15,213 nucleotides of DNA from Candidatus Hodarchaeota archaeon (lineage in GTDB: Archaea > Asgardarchaeota > Heimdallarchaeia > Hodarchaeales > Hodarchaeaceae): the NCBI GenBank assembly GCA_016840035.1, contig JAEOTC010000059.1, positions 1 through 15,213 on the forward strand, read 5' to 3'. Under the pieces are notes generated by a model. The model was not told the DNA's origin, did no database searches, and worked only from the letters and a program-made list of their open reading frames with translations. The first letter of the stretch is position 1, and every line of letters starts with the position of its first letter. Below are positions 2,836-15,213 of the stretch, piece after piece. A program made the translations under genes and the position numbers.

Positions 2836-3213
2836 ATGGAAATTAAAGAGTATTGTATTTACTCCCTTGATTTCGCCTATACACGGATTTCTTCTCATAA
2901 TAATGTTGAAATAGATTTTAGAGGTATTTTAAGCTACCACACAAAGGATCTGGAATTATTCGCTCGTGTGACAAATGGTATCTTGGATCTGGACTCTGTG
3001 AACGTTTTTCTCTACTTCCAAGTTCAGCGTCATATAGATTTAATCCTTAAAGATATAAAAGAAGAAGAGATCGTAAATCAACGGCCCATTATAGTGAATC
3101 GTATAAAAATGGTAATAAGAAGGGAGTTAGAAGATATTGGCCTTGAATTCGTAAACTTCAAACAAATTTCCTTATGGAGTCATGGAGCTACCTCGAGAGG
3201 AATAGCGGCATAA
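2836..3213 (+). CDS. Stand-alone SPFH/band-7-like core domain protein, 125 aa
   Basis: SHNNVEIDFRGILSYHTKD…QVQRHIDLILKDIKEEEIVNQRPIIVNRIKMVIRRELEDIGLEFVNFKQISL follows the SPFH core pattern (TkDnv.v.v…y.v.D…lr.iig…leei…R..i…i…l…l…Gi.i..v.i). No TM segment or coiled-coil tail. Confidence 0.6.
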   Translation: MEIKEYCIYSLDFAYTRISSHNNVEIDFRGILSYHTKDLELFARVTNGILDLDSVNVFLYFQVQRHIDLILKDIKEEEIVNQRPIIVNRIKMVIRRELEDIGLEFVNFKQISLWSHGATSRGIAA

Positions 3214-5142: not shown

Positions 5143-5640
5143 CTAGGTTCCTAATTTCTTCATAATTCTAAAATGCTTTCCTCTTTGGACACCATACTTC
5201 TCTAATATATTCTTATTTTTGTCTTTGATTGTAAAATCTCCAGTATCTTTTCTAAGATAACCGACATAAATCTTCTCTTTTCTGATTTCAAACCATAAAT
5301 GGACGAAATTTTCAAATTGAGGATCTTCTGATTTATTAATAGTAAATTTACCCAACTTTTTTCCCTCACCTGTGATTTGAAGAGCATATTCTTCTTTTGC
5401 ATCGCGTTTTACGGATTTTTTTACCCCTGGAGTAACAGATATATTACGCAATCTCTTTTCCTCTGCATCTAGATAGGAGATTGCAAGTTGAGTTGCTTCT
5501 TCTATTGCTTCTTGAGTTGAAGTAGGGTCCGTAACATTTAGTTCAAATTCAATGAATATTTCTTCTGGTTCAAATTGACGCACTTGAATTTTCCTACTCC
5601 GCCCCACGCGTTTTGGCACAACCTGCCATTTATCTTTCAT
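5143..5640 (-). CDS. Hypothetical protein, about 165 aa (start moved to ATG at 5640)
   Basis: The GTG start at 5649 in the ORF track lies inside an AGGTGA SD (5651-5646), which sits 5 nt before the in-frame ATG at 5640 (MKDKW…). No family recognised. Confidence 0.75.
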   Translation of the reverse strand: MKDKWQVVPKRVGRSRKIQVRQFEPEEIFIEFELNVTDPTSTQEAIEEATQLAISYLDAEEKRLRNISVTPGVKKSVKRDAKEEYALQITGEGKKLGKFTINKSEDPQFENFVHLWFEIRKEKIYVGYLRKDTGDFTIKDKNKNILEKYGVQRGKHFRIMKKLGT

Positions 5641-5673
5641 AACTATCACCTTTTGTTTTACTTCGAAAGAAAG

Positions 5674-5692
5674 AATATAAGAAATCTTTCTG
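5674..5692 (-). promoter_or_regulatory. Candidate archaeal BRE/TATA promoter for the 5640 gene and downstream amrB and pfkB-like genes
   Basis: The minus strand reads CAGAAAGATTTCTTATATT about 25 nt upstream of the SD. The AT-rich background weakens the signal. Confidence 0.3.
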
Positions 5693-5790
5693 TTAATAAG
5701 AACTCAAAATAATTCTTAAAGCCAAAAATTTTTCGAGGACTCGAATTATTTCTGAATAATTTCCATAAAACCATCATTACGAAAACTTTA

Positions 5791-7212
5791 TTACTCAGAT
5801 GATTGTTTGAGATCCTTCTCAAGTATCATTTCATGAATGGCTTTTGCTGCTTTTCGACCTGCTTCCATGGCTAAAATTACAGTTGCTGCACCCGTTGCTA
5901 CGTCTCCTCCACAGAAAATTCTTTCACGAGTTGTTGCTCCTGTTGCTTCATCATGCACAAATGTGCCCCACTTTGTAATTTCCAATCCATCAGTTGTTTG
6001 AGCAATTAATTGATTTGGACGTTGACCTATGGCGATAATAACCGTATCCACAGGAAAAATGAATTCTGTTTCAGGGATAGGTATTGGTCTTCTACGTCCT
6101 GATGCATCCTTTTCTCCTAAATCCATCTTCATACATTTAAGACCGACTACGTTCCCTTTGTTATCTCCAATAATTTCTAGAGGAGAGGTTAGTTCTCCTA
6201 TTACGACACCTTCTTCTTTGGCATGAATGATTTCTTCAAGACGTGCTGGGATTTCTCCTTCTGATCTCCTATATATAATATCCACCTCACGCGCACCCAA
6301 TCGTAGAGAGGTTCTAGCACAATCCATTGCAACATTTCCTGCTCCAATGACTGCAACTTTTTCTCCAATTGTAACAGGTGTATCGTAGTCTGGGAACTGA
6401 TATCCTTTTAATAAATTCACCCTAGTAAGAAATTCGTTTGCTGAAAAAACTCCATTAAAGTTTTCTCCAGGTATCCCTAGAAAATTAGGTGTTCCCGCTC
6501 CCGAGGCAACATAGACTGCATTATTATTGTAATCTCCCAAAAGCTCATTGATTGTAATAGTTCTCCCAATAAGTACATCTTTTTCAAACTTTACGCCTAA
6601 AGCCATAACAGATTCTATTTCTTCATTTACTATGGCTTTTGGCATTCTGAATTCAGGAATTCCATATGTTAGAACTCCACCATATTCGTGTAATGCTTCA
6701 TACACAGTTACTTGATGACCCAATACTGCTAATTCCGCAGCACAGGTCAATCCTGAAGGTCCAGCTCCGACAACAGCCACTTTAGATCCGAGATCTTTAG
6801 AAATATTTCTATCACCACTCTGACCCTGATCAGCAACATAGCGTTCCAGATTACCGATGGAAATAGCATTGGGATGTATACAAAATTCTTGGCATTGATT
6901 TTCTTGAGGACAAACTCGACCAGTGATTGCTGGAAGGCTATTGGTGCATAAAATGATGTCCTTTGCCCCGTTGATATCATTTTCAATGACTTTTTCTATA
7001 AATTCGGGAATCTGAACATTAACAGGACAACCTTTCACGCACCGTGGTTTTTTACATTTTAAACAGCGAGAGGCTTCTTCTAAAGCTTCTTCGGGAGTAT
7101 ATCCTAACGCAACTTCATTAAAATTGCGAATTCGTTCACGGGATTCTTGAATATCCATGTGTGTGCGTTTTTTCTTAAGTTTCTGCTTTCTTTTCTCTCG
7201 TTCATCGCTCAT
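5791..7212 (-). CDS. nfnB: NfnB/SudA-type large subunit of NADH-dependent ferredoxin:NADP+ oxidoreductase (GltD-like), copy 1
   Basis: Fe-S motifs RCLKCKKPRCVKGCPV and GRVCPQENQCQEFC; also LERYVAD, FAD motif VVGAGPSG, YGIPEFR, GAGNVAMD, YRRS (NADP) and GGDVATGAATVILAM. Lies 15 nt downstream of an nfnA-type gene. Confidence 0.9.
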   Translation of the reverse strand: MSDEREKRKQKLKKKRTHMDIQESRERIRNFNEVALGYTPEEALEEASRCLKCKKPRCVKGCPVNVQIPEFIEKVIENDINGAKDIILCTNSLPAITGRVCPQENQCQEFCIHPNAISIGNLERYVADQGQSGDRNISKDLGSKVAVVGAGPSGLTCAAELAVLGHQVTVYEALHEYGGVLTYGIPEFRMPKAIVNEEIESVMALGVKFEKDVLIGRTITINELLGDYNNNAVYVASGAGTPNFLGIPGENFNGVFSANEFLTRVNLLKGYQFPDYDTPVTIGEKVAVIGAGNVAMDCARTSLRLGAREVDIIYRRSEGEIPARLEEIIHAKEEGVVIGELTSPLEIIGDNKGNVVGLKCMKMDLGEKDASGRRRPIPIPETEFIFPVDTVIIAIGQRPNQLIAQTTDGLEITKWGTFVHDEATGATTRERIFCGGDVATGAATVILAMEAGRKAAKAIHEMILEKDLKQSSE

Positions 7213-7227
7213 AATGTTCCAGACTCC

Positions 7228-9075
7228 TTAACTAGACCTTGTCATATGTTCCATGGCAATTCGTTCTTCATAGCGATAGGCCCGAGATCGCAAGGTTAAT
7301 TCATCGAAGTCAACCTTTAATCCATCGAAATTTGGTCCATCTACGCATGCAAACTTCACCTTCCCACCCACAGTAACGCGACAGGCTCCGCACATACCTG
7401 TTCCATCAACCATCAAAGGTGCTAGAGATACTATGGTTGGAATATTGTGTTTCTTTGTAAAATTCACTACTGCTCTCATCATTGGTATAGGGCCAACCGC
7501 AACAACATGGTCGAATTTTCTTCCTTCATCAATGAATTTCTTCAATAAATCTAATCCAAATCCATGATGACCCAAAGTCCCATCATCTGTAGCGATATGC
7601 AACTCATCACTGGCAGAATTCATATCATCTTGACAGATAAGAAGAGAACCTGTTCGAGCAGAGATGATACTTACGATATAATTGCCTTTCTCCCTCATTG
7701 CTTTTGTTTTTGGCAATACTGGGGCAACACCACATCCTCCTCCTAGTACTGCCACGGTGCCCCATTTCTCAATTTTTACAGGTTCACCAAGAGGCCCCAA
7801 TAGGTTTAAAATGTGATCTCCCGTGTCTAATTTACCCATCAACTTAGTACTTTTCCCAATTTTCTGAAAAATAAGAGTAATAGTTCCTGCATCTCTATCA
7901 AAATCAGCAACAGTGAGAGGAATCCTTTCACCATAATCTACTACACGGAGGATAACGAATTGACCAGGTTGACATTTTTCAGCAATTCGTGGAGCATCAA
8001 CAACCCACTTTATAATTTCGGGAGAAAGGTCGACTTTTTCGATTATTTTACTTTCTCCTTCGATAAATCTCTGGGCCAACACTGCAGTAATTTTTTCTGG
8101 TTCCTTTTCACTTTCTACTTTTTCTAAATCTGTAAGATATTTTGAAATTTGCATCGCTGCTGTCTGTCCTTCTGCAGCATCAATCCCCACTATTGAATCT
8201 CCTCTCGTCGCACTTCCCGCAGCAAATACTCCTTGTAAATTTGTATCTTGTTTTGCAGAATTAATTATTATTTTTCCTTCAGGAGTAACAGCTAATCCCG
8301 CATTCATGAATAATTCCCTATTTTTTATCTTGCTACTTAGAATGACCACAGTTTCAGTGGAGATAGAAACTCTTTCCCCAGTAGGGCTCTTTAAATTCAC
8401 TTTTTTAATCTTTATATCTCCCTCGAATGAAATAACTTCGTGTTGGAATCGAATATTTACAAAACTCTCATTTAACCTTCTTAACAGGGCTGGATGAGCA
8501 TCAAATGCATTTCTAGCTGTAATTAAACAGACATGTGCACCAACCGAATCATAATGCAACGCATTACGAACGGCCCATGAGTTGTGACCAATTATCGCAA
8601 CATTTTTCTCTTCATATTCACCTTCTGGAGGATTATTGTAGTAAATACCTTTTGAACGGTATTTTCTTTCTCCTGGAACATTGAGCTTCTTCGGATGTAA
8701 TCCAGTGGCAATAAGTACTGTTTTCCCTTCGTACATAATCTCTTCTGAGAAAAATTCACCCCTAACTACAGTTGAGTACACCCGTTTTATGTTTCCTTCC
8801 AGCTCAAACCGACTAACTTTTTCTGCATATCGGATTGTTGCCTTGTATTTCGCCTGACGTGCCATTTTATCAAGTAGTTCTTGACGTGTTATGCTAAAAA
8901 ACCCTGGATAGCCATCGACCATCATACTACCAGCGGTAGCAGATCCAGATCTAGCCTCAAGAACAAGAACACTTCGACCTAATTCAGCCGCGCGAATTGC
9001 ACAAGAAAGTCCAGCAGGACCGCCTCCCACACATATGACATCCCATATTTTTGATTCCAACAGATTTTGCTCCAA
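7228..9075 (-). CDS. nfnA: Fusion of an N-terminal thioredoxin-reductase-like flavoprotein domain (no CxxC) and a C-terminal NfnA/SudB (PyrK-like FAD/[2Fe-2S]) domain
   Basis: Residues ~10-316 carry DVICVGGGPAGLSCA, YPGF, LIATG and TNLQGVFAAG. Residues ~342-615 carry QPGQFVILRV, ERIPLTVAD, GPLG, GGGCGVAP, MVDGTGMCGACRV and CVDGP. The frame is continuous. Confidence 0.88.
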   Translation of the reverse strand: MEQNLLESKIWDVICVGGGPAGLSCAIRAAELGRSVLVLEARSGSATAGSMMVDGYPGFFSITRQELLDKMARQAKYKATIRYAEKVSRFELEGNIKRVYSTVVRGEFFSEEIMYEGKTVLIATGLHPKKLNVPGERKYRSKGIYYNNPPEGEYEEKNVAIIGHNSWAVRNALHYDSVGAHVCLITARNAFDAHPALLRRLNESFVNIRFQHEVISFEGDIKIKKVNLKSPTGERVSISTETVVILSSKIKNRELFMNAGLAVTPEGKIIINSAKQDTNLQGVFAAGSATRGDSIVGIDAAEGQTAAMQISKYLTDLEKVESEKEPEKITAVLAQRFIEGESKIIEKVDLSPEIIKWVVDAPRIAEKCQPGQFVILRVVDYGERIPLTVADFDRDAGTITLIFQKIGKSTKLMGKLDTGDHILNLLGPLGEPVKIEKWGTVAVLGGGCGVAPVLPKTKAMREKGNYIVSIISARTGSLLICQDDMNSASDELHIATDDGTLGHHGFGLDLLKKFIDEGRKFDHVVAVGPIPMMRAVVNFTKKHNIPTIVSLAPLMVDGTGMCGACRVTVGGKVKFACVDGPNFDGLKVDFDELTLRSRAYRYEERIAMEHMTRSS

Positions 9076-9283: not shown

Positions 9284-10252
9284 TTGATGGCAGCAAATAC
9301 AATGAAGATAGATCCATTTAGTACAAAATCTATGGTGCTGGAAAAATCACCCGAGACACGATCATTTTCGTCAAGCTTGATTGGATTTTACTTATGCTCT
9401 TTCGACACAACATATGGACTACAGATTCTCTACACAATACCACCAAGCTTACGCAAAAGCTCCGAAGAACATGACATTTTGAAGACGCATTATATATGGA
9501 AAGTTGAACATATCCCCATGCGCATAGATCTCAAGATTTCAGAGTTTATTTATTCTGCTCTTCAGCTACATGAATCAGACCCACAATCACCAGATGTATC
9601 AGCTACTGTAGAAAAGCCTATCTTCGGAATTGTATTCAAAATTTGGAAGGATGGTGAGTTAATTCATCCAGATGCTCTTGATCAATTTCGAAATGATCTC
9701 CAACTCGATTATTACTCCGATATAGAACTCCTATATAAACGGCAAATTTTAAAGCTAAATCCAGCGAAGCGACGAAAATATTTACAGCTCGCAGATAAAG
9801 CAGCAGAGATCGGGAAGTTCCTCAAATCTGAGTGGGAAAACCTAGTAAATAATGTTTCTAATATCGATATATTCTTTGAATCCCAAAAACTAACCTTTCC
9901 CGATTCCACTATTATATCATCAGAAAGAGAAGATCGTGAGAAGAATCTTTTTAAAATTCCAATTACTATGCGCGTATTACAAACTGAAGAGAGTAGTGAA
10001 GAAGTTTTAGTTATCTTAGTGAATCAATTGGAAACATTATTAGATGTAAAAATTAGGGTTTCAAAGAAAACCCAGTTTTTTAGTGAAAACCTTTGGGAAC
10101 AGGATCTTGAGGAATGGGCAATGAAAGAAGACATTATCCTTGAATTTCCTCGTTCATCAAAACTAGAGAGTTATATGCTAAAAATTACAAGTAAGAACCA
10201 TACTGTGGCAATTAAATCGTTAGAGATTGGCCCAGCAGATACAAAGTTATAA
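9284..10252 (+). CDS. Putative longin/uDENN-like N-terminal domain plus shared C-terminal beta-sandwich domain (paralog A)
   Basis: IGFYLCSFDTTYGLQILYTIP fits the uDENN/NPR2-type opening (hydrophobic strand-F-D/H-x3-G-x-strand-P). Aligns with the next gene at both ends. Start uncertain (TTG 9284, ATG 9287 or a later ATG). The ORF is solid; the fold call is inference. Confidence 0.65.
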   Translation: MMAANTMKIDPFSTKSMVLEKSPETRSFSSSLIGFYLCSFDTTYGLQILYTIPPSLRKSSEEHDILKTHYIWKVEHIPMRIDLKISEFIYSALQLHESDPQSPDVSATVEKPIFGIVFKIWKDGELIHPDALDQFRNDLQLDYYSDIELLYKRQILKLNPAKRRKYLQLADKAAEIGKFLKSEWENLVNNVSNIDIFFESQKLTFPDSTIISSEREDREKNLFKIPITMRVLQTEESSEEVLVILVNQLETLLDVKIRVSKKTQFFSENLWEQDLEEWAMKEDIILEFPRSSKLESYMLKITSKNHTVAIKSLEIGPADTKL

Positions 10253-10263
10253 AATAGCTACTG

Positions 10264-10276
10264 GAAAAGGTTATAT
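10264..10276 (+). promoter_or_regulatory. Candidate BRE-TATA promoter (GAAAAGG-TTATAT) upstream of paralog B
   Basis: A purine-rich BRE-like run directly precedes TTATAT in the 94-nt intergenic gap. A GGAGA SD lies just before the TTG at 10347. Confidence 0.4.
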
Positions 10277-10346
10277 CCTAAATTTCGAAATAGTAACGAA
10301 ATTGATTTGAATTTGAGAAGCTATGTAATTATTTGGAGAACTAGTT

Positions 10347-11354
10347 TTGCCGAATGGGAAAGCGAATCCAATTGATTCAATTCATTTAGAGGTCAAAGAT
10401 CGATCATTTGGTTTTTTTATATACTTTTATGACGAACTACAGGGTCATTCGCTTTTATTTACCTATCCAAAGACTCTTATGTCAAATGAAAACGAAAGGG
10501 CAATTCTAGCTATTCACCCCGCTTGGTGGCATCAAGATCAGTTTTTAAAAACTGAGAAATTTTCCACTATGGATCTTGAACTTAGTGGGGTTGTATACTC
10601 AGCTACTCTCTTTGAGTGTGAAGCTCAACGCTTGAAGAGACGATCTGGTATGAAAGCGATGAAATGGCAAAAAGAAAGGTTTATTCTTATAGTAAAAGCT
10701 CCCTCTGAAGTATCATTTATTGCTCAAGAAATTCTTCAAGAGTTTTATTCACGGATTAAAGAAGATTATAGTAAACATCTTTGTTATTTAGTTAGGTTCC
10801 AGCTCGAATCATCTGCACAAATGTCAAGTAAAGATTTCTCCCCAGAAAATGCTAAATTAGTTGAAGAAGAGCTTACTGAAATCTGTCAGTCATTATCTCC
10901 AAATACACCACTTAATAAACTCGAACCTTTTCTCCAAGAAGACGACAAGATAGAGAAACGTAAAAAATTACCAGGTTCTCCTTCTCATTCTGTTCCAAAG
11001 AAGAAGCTAAGATTCGCAATTCCAAGGAGTAAAGACACGACAGTAATCGCTCGAATTAATAATAAAGAGATTCGAGGAAGGCAAAAAACAGTAAAAATTC
11101 TATCAATAGAGCGTGGGGATGAATCTATATCAATTTCTTTAAAAAATACGTCTCCCTTTAATTTAGATAATATCACTATTCGAGTTTATGAATCACGGGG
11201 ATTCTTTGGGAAGGATAAATTAGTTAAAAAAATAAAGAATTGGCAACAGAATGAGGTATATGGACTAGATTTTAAACCTGAAGTTGAAAATGGAATAAGG
11301 TATTTGCTTAAAATAGAAGATGAAGAAGATACTTTAAAAATTAAGAGAATTTAA
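10347..11354 (+). CDS. Putative longin/uDENN-like N-terminal domain plus shared C-terminal beta-sandwich domain (paralog B)
   Basis: FGFFIYFYDELQGHSLLFTYP opening; DLELSGVVYSA matches DLKISEFIYSA in paralog A; basic/Pro linker; C-terminal IRV-x5-FF-x11-W domain. TTG start with GGAGA SD. Confidence 0.65.
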   Translation: MPNGKANPIDSIHLEVKDRSFGFFIYFYDELQGHSLLFTYPKTLMSNENERAILAIHPAWWHQDQFLKTEKFSTMDLELSGVVYSATLFECEAQRLKRRSGMKAMKWQKERFILIVKAPSEVSFIAQEILQEFYSRIKEDYSKHLCYLVRFQLESSAQMSSKDFSPENAKLVEEELTEICQSLSPNTPLNKLEPFLQEDDKIEKRKKLPGSPSHSVPKKKLRFAIPRSKDTTVIARINNKEIRGRQKTVKILSIERGDESISISLKNTSPFNLDNITIRVYESRGFFGKDKLVKKIKNWQQNEVYGLDFKPEVENGIRYLLKIEDEEDTLKIKRI

Positions 11355-11371
11355 GGAAATGGGATTTTAAT

Positions 11372-11770
11372 TTGAACGTAACACAAGTTAAAGATTTAAT
11401 GACAAAGGATTTAATCACTATTAGTGGAGAGAAAAGTGTAATTTACGCTTCAGAATTAATGATGGAAAAAAATATTGGATCTATTCTTGTTTATGACGAT
11501 TCCACAGTGATAGGAATTATAACGGAACGTGATATTGTAAGAAAAGTAATTACAGATTGTAAAGATCTATGTGATGTGAAAGCGCGAGAAATTGCTACTA
11601 AAGAAATCATCACAATCGCCCCTCAAGACACAATTGAGCACGCATTAATTACCATGTACAGAAGAAAAATTAAACGAATCCCAGTCAAAGATCCTGAATC
11701 TCATGAATTAGTAGGAATTATTACTACTCATGACATCATTGCCGCATTTAATACGTTAGAACTTAGGTAA
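11372..11770 (+). CDS. Stand-alone CBS-pair (Bateman) domain protein
   Basis: Motifs VKDLMTKDLITI, LMMEKNIGSILV, GIITERDIV, IKRIPV and LVGIITTHDII give two tandem CBS repeats in 132 aa. Confidence 0.93.
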   Translation: MNVTQVKDLMTKDLITISGEKSVIYASELMMEKNIGSILVYDDSTVIGIITERDIVRKVITDCKDLCDVKAREIATKEIITIAPQDTIEHALITMYRRKIKRIPVKDPESHELVGIITTHDIIAAFNTLELR

Positions 11771-11779
11771 AGGTTGTAT

Positions 11780-13513
11780 CTATTTTTTCACATCGTTGGC
11801 AACAATTATTTTTGACATTATCTTACCATGTAGATCATTAATGGTAAGTAGATATTCTTTTTCGTTTTTATCAATTCTTGGGCAATCAAGCTCATGTTCT
11901 TCACCAGGAGACCATCGAGGGACAGTTTTTTCCAACATAGTCGTTTCAAAGAATTCGTGTACATGAGATACTCGTATTTTAACTTGGTCAAGATCTTTAT
12001 CTGAAATATTAATAATATTGAGCTTTAAATAAACCGTATTTGGATAAATTGCAGCATGCTTCAATTCTAATGAGCCTTTAGGAACTCCAAAACTCTCAGG
12101 TGTTTCCTCAACTTGTGGAAAGAGGTCTTCATGAATAGCCGTTGCTGCTCGTCTTCCAGCACCCATTGCTGAAATCACTGTAGCAGCTCCAGTCACGATA
12201 TCCCCACCTGCATAAACATGAGGTTTACTTGTTCTTCCCATTTCATCTGTTACAATATTTCCCCATTTATTTACTTCTAAATCGGGAGTGGTCATTGTGA
12301 TTAAAGGATTGGCTTTATTTCCTATTGCTATGATAATTAAATCAGTATTAAGCACAAAATAATCCCCATCTATAGGTACAGGTCGTGCCCGACCTGATTT
12401 ATCTGGTTCACCTAGTTGATAGCGTTGGCACCTGATTGATTCAATACGTCCTTTTTCGTCACCCATAATTTCTACTGGGTTGGATAATAACTTAAATTGA
12501 ACACCTTCCTCTTCTGCGTGGTGAATTTCCTCTAATCTTGCAGGCATTTGTTCTCTAGATCTACGATATACGATATGGACATTATCAGCATCTAATCGTA
12601 AGGCAGTTCTTGCTGAATCCATAGCTACGTTTCCTCCTCCAACTACAACCACATTCTTACCCGTTAATAGGGGTGTATTATACTTAGGATAAAGATAAGC
12701 TTTCATCAAATTAGATCGTGTTAGATATTCATTCGCGGAATAGACACCCTGCAAGTTCTCTCCAGGGATATTCATGAACACAGGTAATCCAGCACCAACG
12801 CCGATATACACTGCATCATATCCATCTTCAGTAAATAATTCATCAATCCCACGAATTCTCCCAATAACAGAGTCGTATACGAACTTAACACCAGCGTTTT
12901 CTAGATTCTGAATTTCATATTGGACTACAGATTTTGGTAAACGAAATTCGGGAATTCCGTAAACAAGAACTCCTCCACCTAAATGAAACGCCTCATAGAC
13001 AGTTACTTCGTATCCTTGTTGAATCAAATCACCAGCAGTTGTTAATCCTGAGGGCCCACTACCTACAATTGCTACCTTTTTCCCATTTTTCCTCACTCGC
13101 TCTGGTTCAGGAACTTGACCAGTAAGTCGTTCATAATCTGCGACAAATCGCTCTAGATTTCCTATCCCTACTGATCTACCTTTCTTTCCTCTAACGCACA
13201 ATCCTTCGCATTGAGATTCTTGTGGACAAACACGACCACAAACAGCTGGGAGTACATTCCTTTCTTTAATTTTCCAAGCGGCCTCAAGGAACTTTCCTTC
13301 TTGAACTAATGCTATAAACTCGGGGATTGGAACACGTACAGGACATCCATCCACACATTTAGGTTTCTTACAATTCAAACATCGATTTGCTTCTTGGATA
13401 GCCATTTCTTCAGAATATCCATACGGAACTTCACGAAAATTCCTGGCCCGAACCTGAGGAGGCTGAGTTGGCATATCAGTAAAGGGAATTTGCATACGTT
13501 CCTTAGACTTCAT
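11780..13513 (-). CDS. nfnB: NfnB/SudA-type large subunit, copy 2, with an extra ~100-aa C-terminal domain
   Basis: Motifs RCLNCKKPKCVDGCPV, GRVCPQESQCEGLC, GSGPSG, GGGNVAMD, YRRS and GGDIVTGAATVISAM. The core ends near AIHEDL (residue ~464); residues ~481-577 are extra. ATGA overlap with the upstream nfnA stop. Confidence 0.9.
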   Translation of the reverse strand: MKSKERMQIPFTDMPTQPPQVRARNFREVPYGYSEEMAIQEANRCLNCKKPKCVDGCPVRVPIPEFIALVQEGKFLEAAWKIKERNVLPAVCGRVCPQESQCEGLCVRGKKGRSVGIGNLERFVADYERLTGQVPEPERVRKNGKKVAIVGSGPSGLTTAGDLIQQGYEVTVYEAFHLGGGVLVYGIPEFRLPKSVVQYEIQNLENAGVKFVYDSVIGRIRGIDELFTEDGYDAVYIGVGAGLPVFMNIPGENLQGVYSANEYLTRSNLMKAYLYPKYNTPLLTGKNVVVVGGGNVAMDSARTALRLDADNVHIVYRRSREQMPARLEEIHHAEEEGVQFKLLSNPVEIMGDEKGRIESIRCQRYQLGEPDKSGRARPVPIDGDYFVLNTDLIIIAIGNKANPLITMTTPDLEVNKWGNIVTDEMGRTSKPHVYAGGDIVTGAATVISAMGAGRRAATAIHEDLFPQVEETPESFGVPKGSLELKHAAIYPNTVYLKLNIINISDKDLDQVKIRVSHVHEFFETTMLEKTVPRWSPGEEHELDCPRIDKNEKEYLLTINDLHGKIMSKIIVANDVKK

Positions 13514-14400
13514 GATGTTTCCTCTTCCTTTGTTCTTTCAAGAAATTTAGCTAAGGAACGACACTCGGGTGAAAAATTTTGTAACCCCAATGTTTCTTCA
13601 GTAATATAGGATGTATTACGTACATGTATTAATTCCTCCCAATCAATTTTATGTGCATCGAATTCTGGTCCATCTACACAGGCAAATTTAGTTTTCCCAT
13701 CGTACGACAATCGACAACTTCCACACATTCCTGTTCCATCAACCATGATTGTGGTAACCGTTGCATATGTTGGAATACCCCCTTTCTCTTTTGTAAGCTT
13801 GGAAACTTTACTCATCATAACATTGCAGCCAATAACTTTAATATGATCTATCTCACGTTTCTGAACCTCAATCATATTATCAAGAATATCATAAATATGT
13901 CCACGCTCACCTTTTGACCCATCAGTAGTTACGAGAATTACTTCGTCACTTACAGTTTTGTATTCTTCTTCATAATAAAGGAGATTTTCATTTTTAGCTT
14001 CAATTATTGTGATTACAATATTTCCAAGTTCCTTGAGCTTCTTTGCTATTGGATATACCGCACCAACCCCATAACAACCCCCACCAAGTACAACTGTCCC
14101 AAAATTGTCAAGATATGCTGGTTCACCAAGAGGGCCGACAATACTATAGAAGCAATCTCCTTCCTCCATGAAAGCCATTTTCGAAGTGGATAATCCTAAC
14201 TCCTGAACTATAAAGGATATTGTTCCTTTTTCCTCGTCCCAATCCAGCAATGTCAAGGGAATTTTCTCTGAATGCTCATCAACCATTACTAAAATAAATT
14301 GTCCAGCTTTAGCTTTCTTGGCTATTCCAGGAACTTTGATATCTAGTTTATAGAAATTCGGTACGAATTCTTCTTTCTTAAGGATATTAAATTTGGACAT
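13510..14400 (-). CDS. nfnA: NfnA/SudB-type small subunit (FAD, [2Fe-2S]), copy 2
   Basis: Motifs KAGQFILVMV, EKIPLTLLD, GPLG, GGGCYG, TTDGSKG, MVDGTGMCGSCRL and CVDGPEF. AGGTGA SD at 14411-14406. Confidence 0.9.
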   Translation of the reverse strand: MSKFNILKKEEFVPNFYKLDIKVPGIAKKAKAGQFILVMVDEHSEKIPLTLLDWDEEKGTISFIVQELGLSTSKMAFMEEGDCFYSIVGPLGEPAYLDNFGTVVLGGGCYGVGAVYPIAKKLKELGNIVITIIEAKNENLLYYEEEYKTVSDEVILVTTDGSKGERGHIYDILDNMIEVQKREIDHIKVIGCNVMMSKVSKLTKEKGGIPTYATVTTIMVDGTGMCGSCRLSYDGKTKFACVDGPEFDAHKIDWEELIHVRNTSYITEETLGLQNFSPECRSLAKFLERTKEEETS

Positions 14401-15211
14401 CTATTTCACCTTTTCCTTTTGATTGGTTTATAGCCTGTTTAGTAGTAATATAAAGTCTGAACTCTTCCACTTTATCGGCTATAGGAACACCCATATACTC
14501 AAGACTTTGTTTCGCAACTTTTGGAATAATAATGTCGCCAGAATTTGAAATTTCATCCTTTAATTCATCAATCGTATTGTAGTTAAATCCGTCAAATCCC
14601 ATTGTATGAGCTAGTTTACTAAAGATCATCCAGCTGGGAAGAGCATCACCAGGCGGCTCAACAGCTTTGTTTATTGGGTATTTCATGTACTCCTCCCCTG
14701 ATTTAGTCCCATCCTCTTCAGTAAACACGGTGGTTGGAAGAACGACTTCAGCAAATTCAGAGGTGTCTGATTCGTAAATATTTTGAAGGATAAGGAGTTC
14801 TATACCCTTTAACTGAGAAAACAACGCTGAATCAAAAGTGGTTACAATTACTTTTATTCCTCGGGTATGTAAACTACTAATCCCTTCTTCATCATACACG
14901 ATAGGATGAGTACTGATTTTCTGTGCGAATTTTGACAAAACGAAAACAGATTCATCAGTGAGAGAGGGTGAAATCGCTATCCCAATTTCTTCTGGTTTAT
15001 ATTCTTTAAGCAAATTAGCAGTATGTGATATTGCCTCCTCCCAAGAAACAGGGTGTTGTTCCTCTTTTATCAATTTACGTTTGATAGTAGGGTATTTCAG
15101 CCGATCACGACTATTAACTAAAGCGGGAATACAAAAACGTCCTTTAACACAGTATTCACGACGAGCAGATAATTCATATGGAGGATGTACGTTTACAACT
15201 TTATCCCATTT
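14387..15211 (-). CDS. NuoG/FdhA-like (molybdopterin-oxidoreductase fold) Fe-S subunit, 5'-partial and internally shortened
   Basis: The frame stays open past the track's 15073 start to the window edge: KWDKVVNVHPPYELSARREYCVKGRFCIPALVNSRDRLKYPTIKRK…VSWEEA. This shows CxKGRF, RLxxP and SWEEA; later LLILQNIYESDTSEFAEVVLP…EEDGT and AVEPPGDALPSWMIF. Overlaps nfnA by 14 nt. Confidence 0.8.
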   Translation of the reverse strand, partial: KWDKVVNVHPPYELSARREYCVKGRFCIPALVNSRDRLKYPTIKRKLIKEEQHPVSWEEAISHTANLLKEYKPEEIGIAISPSLTDESVFVLSKFAQKISTHPIVYDEEGISSLHTRGIKVIVTTFDSALFSQLKGIELLILQNIYESDTSEFAEVVLPTTVFTEEDGTKSGEEYMKYPINKAVEPPGDALPSWMIFSKLAHTMGFDGFNYNTIDELKDEISNSGDIIIPKVAKQSLEYMGVPIADKVEEFRLYITTKQAINQSKGKGEIDVQI

Positions 15212-15213
15212 AA

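Follow-up and report, generated by a model that had tools for sequence, protein, structure and literature searches.

A gene module around a Rag-type GTPase in Asgard archaea, with paired longin-like proteins, redox partners and a rare shared C-terminal domain

We describe here a gene module of Asgard archaea in which two adjacent longin-like proteins, A and B, and a redox enzyme subunit, NfnB-2, end in one and the same rare domain of about 95 residues, which we call the tail. The module was recognised on a contig of Candidatus Hodarchaeota archaeon (assembly GCA_016840035.1, contig JAEOTC010000059.1), the whole of which (15,213 nucleotides, ~36% GC, from a genome of 4.3 Mb) is the window analysed. 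Across the loci that encode tails, the common denominator is a Rag-type GTPase together with a CBS protein, and the redox carrier of the tail has been exchanged within the genus of the window. Our preferred reading, to which we give about even odds, is that the tail serves as an 'address', an interaction domain particular to the module by which interchangeable redox enzymes would be joined to a switch built of Rag, longins and CBS protein. Overall, this is a Rag module with longins resembling GTPase-activating protein (GAP) subunits, a private shared domain and redox partners.

A sequence-only reading of the window, whose interpretation is partly supported, had proposed that the C-termini of A, B and NfnB-2 are homologous, and pairwise BLASTP bears this out (E=6e-8, 9e-8 and 7e-8; 28-39% identity with 0-2 gaps). 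The tails occupy residues ~226-322 of A (9959..10249, + strand) and ~246-335 of B (11082..11351, +), as placed by BLASTP and profile, and residues ~481-577 of NfnB-2 (11783..12073, -), the copy that is closest to the tails of FrhB-like proteins. A profile of the three segments finds exactly three copies in the 4.3-Mb genome, with the next match at E=0.2; the '1 TAA' flags raised on B in profile searches are due solely to the match extending across the stop codon of B itself. NfnB-1, a second NfnB encoded in the window, aligns with NfnB-2 at 53% identity up to NfnB-2 residue 462 and then ends, and it lacks the tail as had been noticed. Among 28 diverse copies, four tail residues (N, F, W and Y) never vary, and E and K hardly do; the long consensus drawn earlier from the three window copies proved too specific, its 'IRV' and the first F of its 'FF' varying among the 28. 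Recent duplication within the locus, or gene conversion, was considered as the source of the similarity and rejected, because the tail classes are only 20-28% identical to one another and each is conserved across Asgard classes.

The tail belongs to a common class of folds, and as a sequence family it is rare and new. That it was an unrecognised domain holds against both Pfam, where it has no family, and the PDB, where it has no sequence match. None of the three window tails matched a Pfam model, the gathering scores of CARDB, NPCBM_assoc and DUF11 not being reached, and in a Pfam search of the 28 members at E<=10 no model recognised the domain and no CARDB, NPCBM_assoc or DUF11 match appeared; Por_Secre_tail was matched by 4 of the 28, at noise level (best E 0.0066). 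A profile search of all PDB sequences with the tail found nothing. Against 1.84 billion representative proteins the tail profile gave 85 matches at E<=1e-3, most of them to A/B-like longin proteins of 300-357 residues with the domain at the extreme C-terminus or to FrhB-like proteins of ~500 residues, and a few, weak ones, inside CARDB, NPCBM_assoc or DUF7507 repeat proteins; the matching proteins that were traced to source all came from Asgard archaea. Weak matches (E about 1e-3) in another Heimdallarchaeial family lie within a DUF11-containing protein of ~615 residues, which we set aside as a remote fold relative rather than a module member.

The fold of the tail is modelled with confidence. 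AlphaFold2, given the 28-sequence alignment, returned seven beta-strands with a mean predicted local distance difference test score (pLDDT) of 91.5 and a predicted template modelling score of 0.82, so that the early guess of an Ig-like beta-sandwich was right. In the ESM Atlas, close matches (template modelling (TM) score 0.80-0.91) are to Asgard clusters only, namely hypothetical proteins of ~345 residues and FrhB-like proteins of ~496 residues, the cluster of FrhB-like proteins with tail having 299 members; the next tier (TM 0.69-0.75) consists of clusters bearing CARDB, NPCBM_assoc and DUF11, which are the nearest named neighbours. A fold search of the PDB gave a flat list at Z 8-9.5 (best 9.5) that includes the Ig domains of GH2 and GH3 enzymes, DUF3244, ASF1, FlaF/FlaG, the transglutaminase C-terminal domain, HAP2 D3 and the GAE-type domain of BBS9. 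Because this list is flat, no specific relative of the tail can be named, adaptin ears included: the comparison with adaptin ears offered earlier is no better than that with many other Ig-like folds, and AP and GGA ears are absent among the listed matches, which hold the GAE-type domain of BBS9/PTHB1 at Z 8.6 and the C-terminal domain of RemA at Z 8.2.

The three tail-bearing genes stand together in the window. Protein A (321 residues from ATG, 9287..10252, +; the open reading frame opens at TTG 9284, and the database copy is also of 321 residues) consists of an N-terminal longin-type module, a helical linker and the tail, and protein B (335 residues, 10347..11354, +) likewise of longin module, linker and tail. 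A CBS-pair protein of 132 residues (11372..11770, +; CBS E=7e-28) begins 17 nucleotides downstream of B, a position that is conserved. Convergent with A, B and CBS lies the gene of NfnB-2 (577 residues, 11780..13513, -), which has a core, a linker of ~20 residues and the tail. Its core, residues 1 to ~465, matches Fer4_20 (E=3.8e-42) and Pyr_redox_2 (E=3e-38) in Pfam and has an adjacent NfnA-like partner, which makes it a predicted enzyme of the NfnB/SudA/GltD type. That partner, NfnA-2 (296 residues, 13510..14400, -; DHODB_Fe-S_bind), overlaps nfnB-2 by 4 nucleotides and is preceded by the C-terminal part of a NuoG/FdhA-like subunit (14387..15213, -).

This last gene leads to the Rag GTPase. 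Of molybdopterin-oxidoreductase type, it had appeared as a 'shrunken' NuoG at the window end, a candidate that was rejected since the gene is merely cut by the end of the contig: in sister genomes it is contiguous, encodes 567 residues and has Fer2_4, NADH-G 4Fe-4S, Fer4 and Molybdop_Fe4S4 domains. The last 127 nucleotides of another contig of the same genome, C43, are the exact reverse complement of the last 127 nucleotides of the window, and the partial NuoG-like gene on that contig (locus L069, 11567-12477) joins that of the window. Contig C43 carries a Rag-type GTPase followed by NuoE-, NuoF- and NuoG-like genes, the last running off the contig end, and in three sister genomes the order Rag, NuoE, NuoF, NuoG-like, NfnA2 and NfnB2 with tail, then the convergent CBS, B and A, is contiguous. 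On account of the exact overlap and of this order in the three sister genomes, the Rag GTPase is part of the window locus. The protein (~300 residues, Gtr1/RagA family, C43 8120-9019) is a member of the Rag/Gtr family, with a Gtr1_RagA score of 75.8 bits against a cut-off of 22; it matches a distant Asgard copy at E=3e-92, and its best PDB sequence matches are LokiRagO (6e-16), LokiRagM, RagA and Gtr1, all ahead of Arf. Motifs G1, G3 and G4 are intact (GLSGCGKT, DFGGQ and HKYD). Three more Gtr1/RagA-like paralogues (310, 314 and 334 residues) and a 268-residue protein without a family match stand in a row on the same contig (954-4695, -), ~3.4 kb from the Rag of the module and beyond TrpRS and MFS genes.

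A comparison within the genus shows that the redox carrier of the tail has changed. Within the genus, all of the further genomes searched (21 of 21) have the tail at this locus, usually in three copies, and the conserved order comprises a 168-residue protein, NfnB-1 and a 615-residue fusion, divergent from A, B, CBS and the tail-bearing redox subunit. In about half of the species this third carrier is an NfnB of 581-588 residues, and in the others it is an FrhB-like protein of ~493-509 residues composed of 2x[4Fe-4S], FrhB_N, FrhB_C and the tail; no genome searched has both. A gene for FrhB with tail was sought in the window's genome and none was found; likewise no NfnB-2 orthologue was found in the FrhB-type sisters, where the best match is NfnB-1 at 54-55% identity. 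In those sisters a Gtr1/RagA-family GTPase of ~300 residues comes directly after FrhB with tail, on the opposite strand. The domain is not bound to Nfn genes in particular: in sister species and in other Asgard classes the redox carrier is the FrhB-like flavoprotein.

The NfnB tails appear to derive from FrhB tails. They form one clade (support 99/99) in a tail tree that resolves each carrier class, and because the order among classes is left open by this tree, the origin from FrhB is argued from identity and profile scores: mean identity is 28.1% to FrhB tails vs 22-23% to A or B tails, and the seven NfnB tails score 43-55 bits with the FrhB-tail profile, 32-43 with that of B and 19-35 with that of A. 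These comparisons are most simply read as a replacement in a single sub-lineage of the genus: a NuoEFG-NfnAB operon took the place that the FrhB-like body had held between CBS and Rag, and its terminal subunit kept the tail. The tail would thus have survived the replacement of its enzyme in the same place and in the same module, and therefore more likely serves the module than the chemistry of the enzyme. With NfnB as a carrier, this partner swap amounts to a natural experiment, and it singles out the tail as the link that matters for function.

Beyond the genus, both the tail and this Rag orthologue (E<=1e-50) were surveyed in the same set of 301 sampled Asgard genomes from 30 families. The tail is present in 102 of the 301 genomes and 8 of the 30 families, with 64 of 68 genomes positive in family f14 and 0 of 76 in family f11. 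The Rag orthologue, at 41-50% identity outside the genus and clearly above paralogues, is found in 7 of the 8 tail-bearing families and in 0 of the 22 others, and in several families the Rag gene starts 70-140 nucleotides from the tail-coding end of the FrhB-like gene. The A/B family also reaches Sigyn-, Odin-, Helarchaeota and other Promethearchaeota. A Sigyn-, an Odin- and another Promethearchaeota locus each combine FrhB with tail, one or two longin proteins with tail, CBS, Rag and a further tail protein of ~390-400 residues. This third tail family adjoins Rag (L060 6747-7943; L061 2737-3912, -; L062 12528-13685), and its N-terminal part is possibly arrestin/Vps26-like, a lead that comes from language-model features (score 0.91) and a weak Pfam Arrestin_C match; in the window's genus no tail-bearing copy of that size was found. 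A Helarchaeota protein of 641 residues, P0053, is a natural fusion of a B-like longin with tail and four CBS domains, and because this fusion exists we link the CBS protein to the module. It is also the only case seen in which the tail is internal rather than C-terminal. Additional B-like longin proteins with tail (352-355 residues) are found outside the main locus, in unrelated neighbourhoods, in some larger genomes of the genus (loci L042-L044: G008 C41:247096-247374, G008 C6:393585-393866 and G013 C385:7883-8155).

The N-terminal modules of A and B were suspected of being longin-like, and a structural model of B, to which A is homologous over this region, agrees. Residues 1-245 of B were modelled with a pLDDT of 83.8, above 90 in the core, in the order b-b-a-b-b-b-a-a, the longin order plus a helical extension, and almost all of the top 47 structural matches are longin domains. 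The best PDB matches by Foldseek are Npr2/NPRL2, NPRL3, Lst4, FNIP2/FLCN and a Lokiarchaeota longin; an exhaustive scan with VIA-align put NPRL2 first (Z 10.7, root-mean-square deviation 3.4, 144 aligned), followed by AP-3 sigma, Sec22, FLCN (Z 9.8), Npr2 (Z 9.7) and FNIP2. Searches with the longin module by PDB profile and Pfam gave nothing usable and no detectable sequence homology to known longin GAPs, and Pfam found no DENN or NPRL2 domain in the window proteins. A and B are full-length paralogues, with E=5e-8 between the N-terminal parts; homologues of A are annotated as hypothetical proteins of Hodarchaeales (Asgard). The loop before beta2 has a Gly that is invariant in 33 of 33 A/B-type sequences. 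Between beta4 and beta5, the loop of most B-type proteins, B included, has the conserved stretch S-x-R-x-K-x-R-x-G; no A-type protein, A included, has this basic loop. Arginine fingers of longin GAPs include R78 of NPRL2, R164 of FLCN and R147 of SMCR8.

Taken together, these features are consistent with the following mechanism. A and B would form a GAP-like longin heterodimer that regulates the neighbouring Rag in the manner of NPRL2/NPRL3 or FLCN/FNIP, with B as the Arg-bearing subunit of catalytic type. The tail would most likely hold a redox enzyme together with this longin pair, either by association of tail with tail or through one common receptor; the enzyme would be NfnB-2 here, as the last gene of the row Rag-NuoE-NuoF-NuoG-NfnA-NfnB, and the FrhB-like protein in sister species. 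The CBS protein may sense adenine nucleotides, in which case redox or energy state and nucleotides could be coupled to the GTPase switch. More tentatively, and with less confidence than we place in the address function itself, we suggest that the module is an Asgard forerunner of Rag nutrient and energy signalling: a longin pair regulating Rag, a private tail that plugs redox enzymes (FrhB-like or of the electron-bifurcating NuoEFG-NfnAB type), and elsewhere an arrestin-like protein, into the switch, and a CBS protein that adds an adenine-nucleotide input, with redox rather than amino acids as the ancestral signal. A complex prediction of A, B and the NfnB-2 tail, made with separate alignments and no controls, gave a score of 0.00, which speaks neither for nor against binding. 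GAP activity of A and B, the direction of signalling and binding by the tail are all inferred from gene order, co-inheritance, fold and the asymmetry of motifs, and that indirectness is the first of several points that weigh against an address domain serving a GAP-like Rag switch.

The others concern distribution, the tail residues and the longins themselves. Co-occurrence was counted in related, non-independent genomes, and the counts describe a pattern rather than test it; in family f14, moreover, the Rag and the longin-with-tail genes are often tens of kb apart. FrhB with a tail that has all invariant residues occurs in two genomes of the genus, G001 and G017, and in 3 of 3 genomes of family f18, where A/B, any other tail and this Rag orthologue were not found. 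The tail must therefore also have a role without A and B, perhaps homo-oligomerisation. The invariant N, F, W and Y may equally well be core residues of an Ig-like sandwich as parts of an interface, such as the docking surface earlier proposed for FF and W. Of the strict 'GP' motif of longin GAPs only the Gly is retained: it is followed by His in 19 of the 33 sequences, by Leu in 6 and by Pro in just 1, the usual substitute for Pro being His among B-type proteins and Leu or Val among A-type ones. Finally, the C-terminal halves of A and B, with their Ig-like sandwich of ~95 residues, differ from DENN and NPRL2 C-terminal domains. The f18 gene stands among unrelated genes. In G001 and G017 (loci L040 and L041) the block of NfnB-1, the 615-residue fusion, A, B and CBS is missing between the 168-residue gene, which is the deletion boundary and directly abuts FrhB with tail, and the FrhB gene itself; the FrhB tail of these genomes has a long branch.

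It is rather unlikely that the tails, instead of binding one another, share a third partner (for instance the C-terminal roadblock half of Rag, the CBS protein, or a site on the membrane or envelope) and thereby deliver the carriers to one place, in the way of adaptor 'ears' or of C-terminal sorting domains in type 9 secretion. Nearly all copies of the domain lie at the extreme C-terminus behind a linker, and among the module proteins only Rag and CBS are without it, a pattern that would suit either of the two as receptor; the co-occurrence of tail and Rag orthologue at family level agrees with this as well. Yet FrhB with tail persists in the two genomes of the genus and in family f18, where neither the Rag orthologue nor a neighbouring CBS gene was found, and the resemblance to sorting domains of type 9 secretion (the 4 of 28 Por_Secre_tail matches and the RemA C-terminal domain) is at noise level.

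In a further alternative, the tail primarily serves the FrhB-like flavoenzyme itself, for its oligomerisation or stability, and was copied to neighbouring genes by local shuffling, with no coupling between redox enzymes and GTPase module. FrhB with tail is the most widespread carrier, stands alone in f18, G001 and G017 and accounts for the large Atlas cluster, and extensive domain shuffling is known in Asgard proteins (Liu et al., bioRxiv 10.1101/2020.10.19.343400). We nonetheless hold this explanation to be quite unlikely: the tails of longin, arrestin-like and FrhB proteins fall into old clades that are distinct from one another and maintained across Asgard classes, the family-level co-occurrence is with one particular Rag orthologue, and the retention of the tail on NfnB, at the same position of the locus after FrhB had been replaced, would be hard to explain.

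A sensor of small ligands or glycans, giving each carrier independently the same chemical input, is suggested by the nearest named folds (CARDB, NPCBM_assoc and DUF11) and by the weak profile matches in such repeat proteins, but we think it very improbable, as those families are mostly extracellular structural repeats and the carriers here are cytoplasmic redox and signalling proteins, while the tail shows no known or conserved ligand-site motif and its fold list is flat and generic. Similarity by chance, or an artefact of assembly or annotation, for which we found nothing in favour, is refuted by the significant pairwise E-values, by the presence of the tail in 21 of 21 congeneric genomes and in 102 of 301 Asgard genomes, and by the confident fold.

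Divergent from A in the window lies a conserved flank (5143..9075, -) that encodes the 168-residue protein, tail-free NfnB-1 (473 residues) and the 615-residue fusion. The fusion (7228-9075, -) joins a thioredoxin-reductase-like Pyr_redox_2 flavoprotein to an NfnA-like DHODB_Fe-S_bind module, adjoins NfnB-1 and is divergent from gene A in every species of the genus examined, at 69-90% identity. The 168-residue protein (5143-5649, -) has no Pfam match and adjoins NfnB-1 in sister genomes too. Farther away, open reading frames of 282 residues (156-1004, +) and 125 residues (2836-3213, +) flank an adenine deaminase gene and have no significant family match, the shorter one matching Band_7/SPFH weakly (E=0.0085).

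In Asgard genomes, Rag-, Arf- and Rab-like GTPases number in the dozens, as do longin and roadblock proteins, and how regulators and GTPases are paired, and which signals they carry, is an open problem, with which gene order in MK-D1 was generally of no help (Tran et al. 2024, PMC10933270). The module is an exception, in that a particular orthologue of Rag stays together, and is co-inherited, with two longins similar to the eukaryotic Rag GAPs, a candidate CBS sensor and a redox enzyme. With three to four of its proteins marked by one rare domain, it offers a testable set of partners for an archaeal relative of the eukaryotic nutrient switch and clear constructs for biochemistry (the tails, A/B, Rag, CBS and NfnAB2); should binding and GAP activity be confirmed, one could test directly, in archaea related to eukaryotes, the origin and the original input of signalling of the Rag, GATOR and FLCN type. 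Our search of the literature found no earlier description of the tail, of its sharing with FrhB or NfnB, or of the cluster of Rag, longin, CBS and redox genes, although subscription-only papers might contain one.

Several known systems resemble the module in part. In the tail, the seven-strand sandwich is like the Ig-like (E-set type) domains of CARDB, NPCBM_assoc, DUF11 and DUF7507, but there is only one copy of it, at the C-terminus of enzymes and signalling proteins of the cytoplasm, and not a tandem array on surface proteins. A small C-terminal beta-sandwich behind a linker on otherwise unrelated proteins is a functional analogy to adaptin and GGA ears and to type 9 sorting domains, without a specific structural or sequence relationship. 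NfnB-2 shares its core domains with NfnB/SudA/GltD proteins of the NADH-dependent ferredoxin:NADP oxidoreductase type, and its NfnA-like gene is translationally coupled; unlike them it continues past the usual C-terminus with linker and tail, in a row of NuoE, NuoF, NuoG, NfnA and NfnB that is headed by Rag.

The closest parallel is with the longin GAP complexes of eukaryotes. As in NPRL2-NPRL3 of GATOR1 (yeast Npr2-Npr3), FLCN-FNIP (Lst7-Lst4) and C9orf72-SMCR8, there are two paralogous longins, here encoded side by side, and A and B are tied genomically and phyletically to a Rag-type GTPase. In FLCN, NPRL2, SMCR8 and C9orf72 a 'GP' motif lies at the end of the loop before beta2 (PMC12290439), the site at which A and B conserve the Gly, its Pro usually being His or Leu. 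Only one subunit supplies the catalytic Arg in the eukaryotic pairs SMCR8/C9orf72, FLCN/FNIP and NPRL2/NPRL3 (PMC8213707, PMC12290439), and from their sequences A and B would follow this pattern, with conserved arginines in B alone. Longins with GP motif and Arg finger have been reported in Asgard archaea (PMC12290439, Traffic 2025), as have many NPRL2-like longins and a conserved operon of LAMTOR1-like, Rab-like and DENN genes with a non-Rag GTPase (Liu et al., bioRxiv 10.1101/2020.10.19.343400); like these FLCN/SMCR8-type and NPRL2-like proteins, whose published members are notably in Heimdallarchaeia, A and B resemble the eukaryotic GAP longins (Liu et al.; PMC12290439). In the Asgard archaeon MK-D1, longin genes and GTPase genes do not, as a rule, share operons (Tran et al. 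2024, PMC10933270). The module departs from the eukaryotic complexes in that A and B end in an Ig-like sandwich instead of a DENN or NPRL2 C-terminal domain, and in that redox enzymes and a CBS protein are among the partners, with no DEPDC5 or Ragulator context seen.

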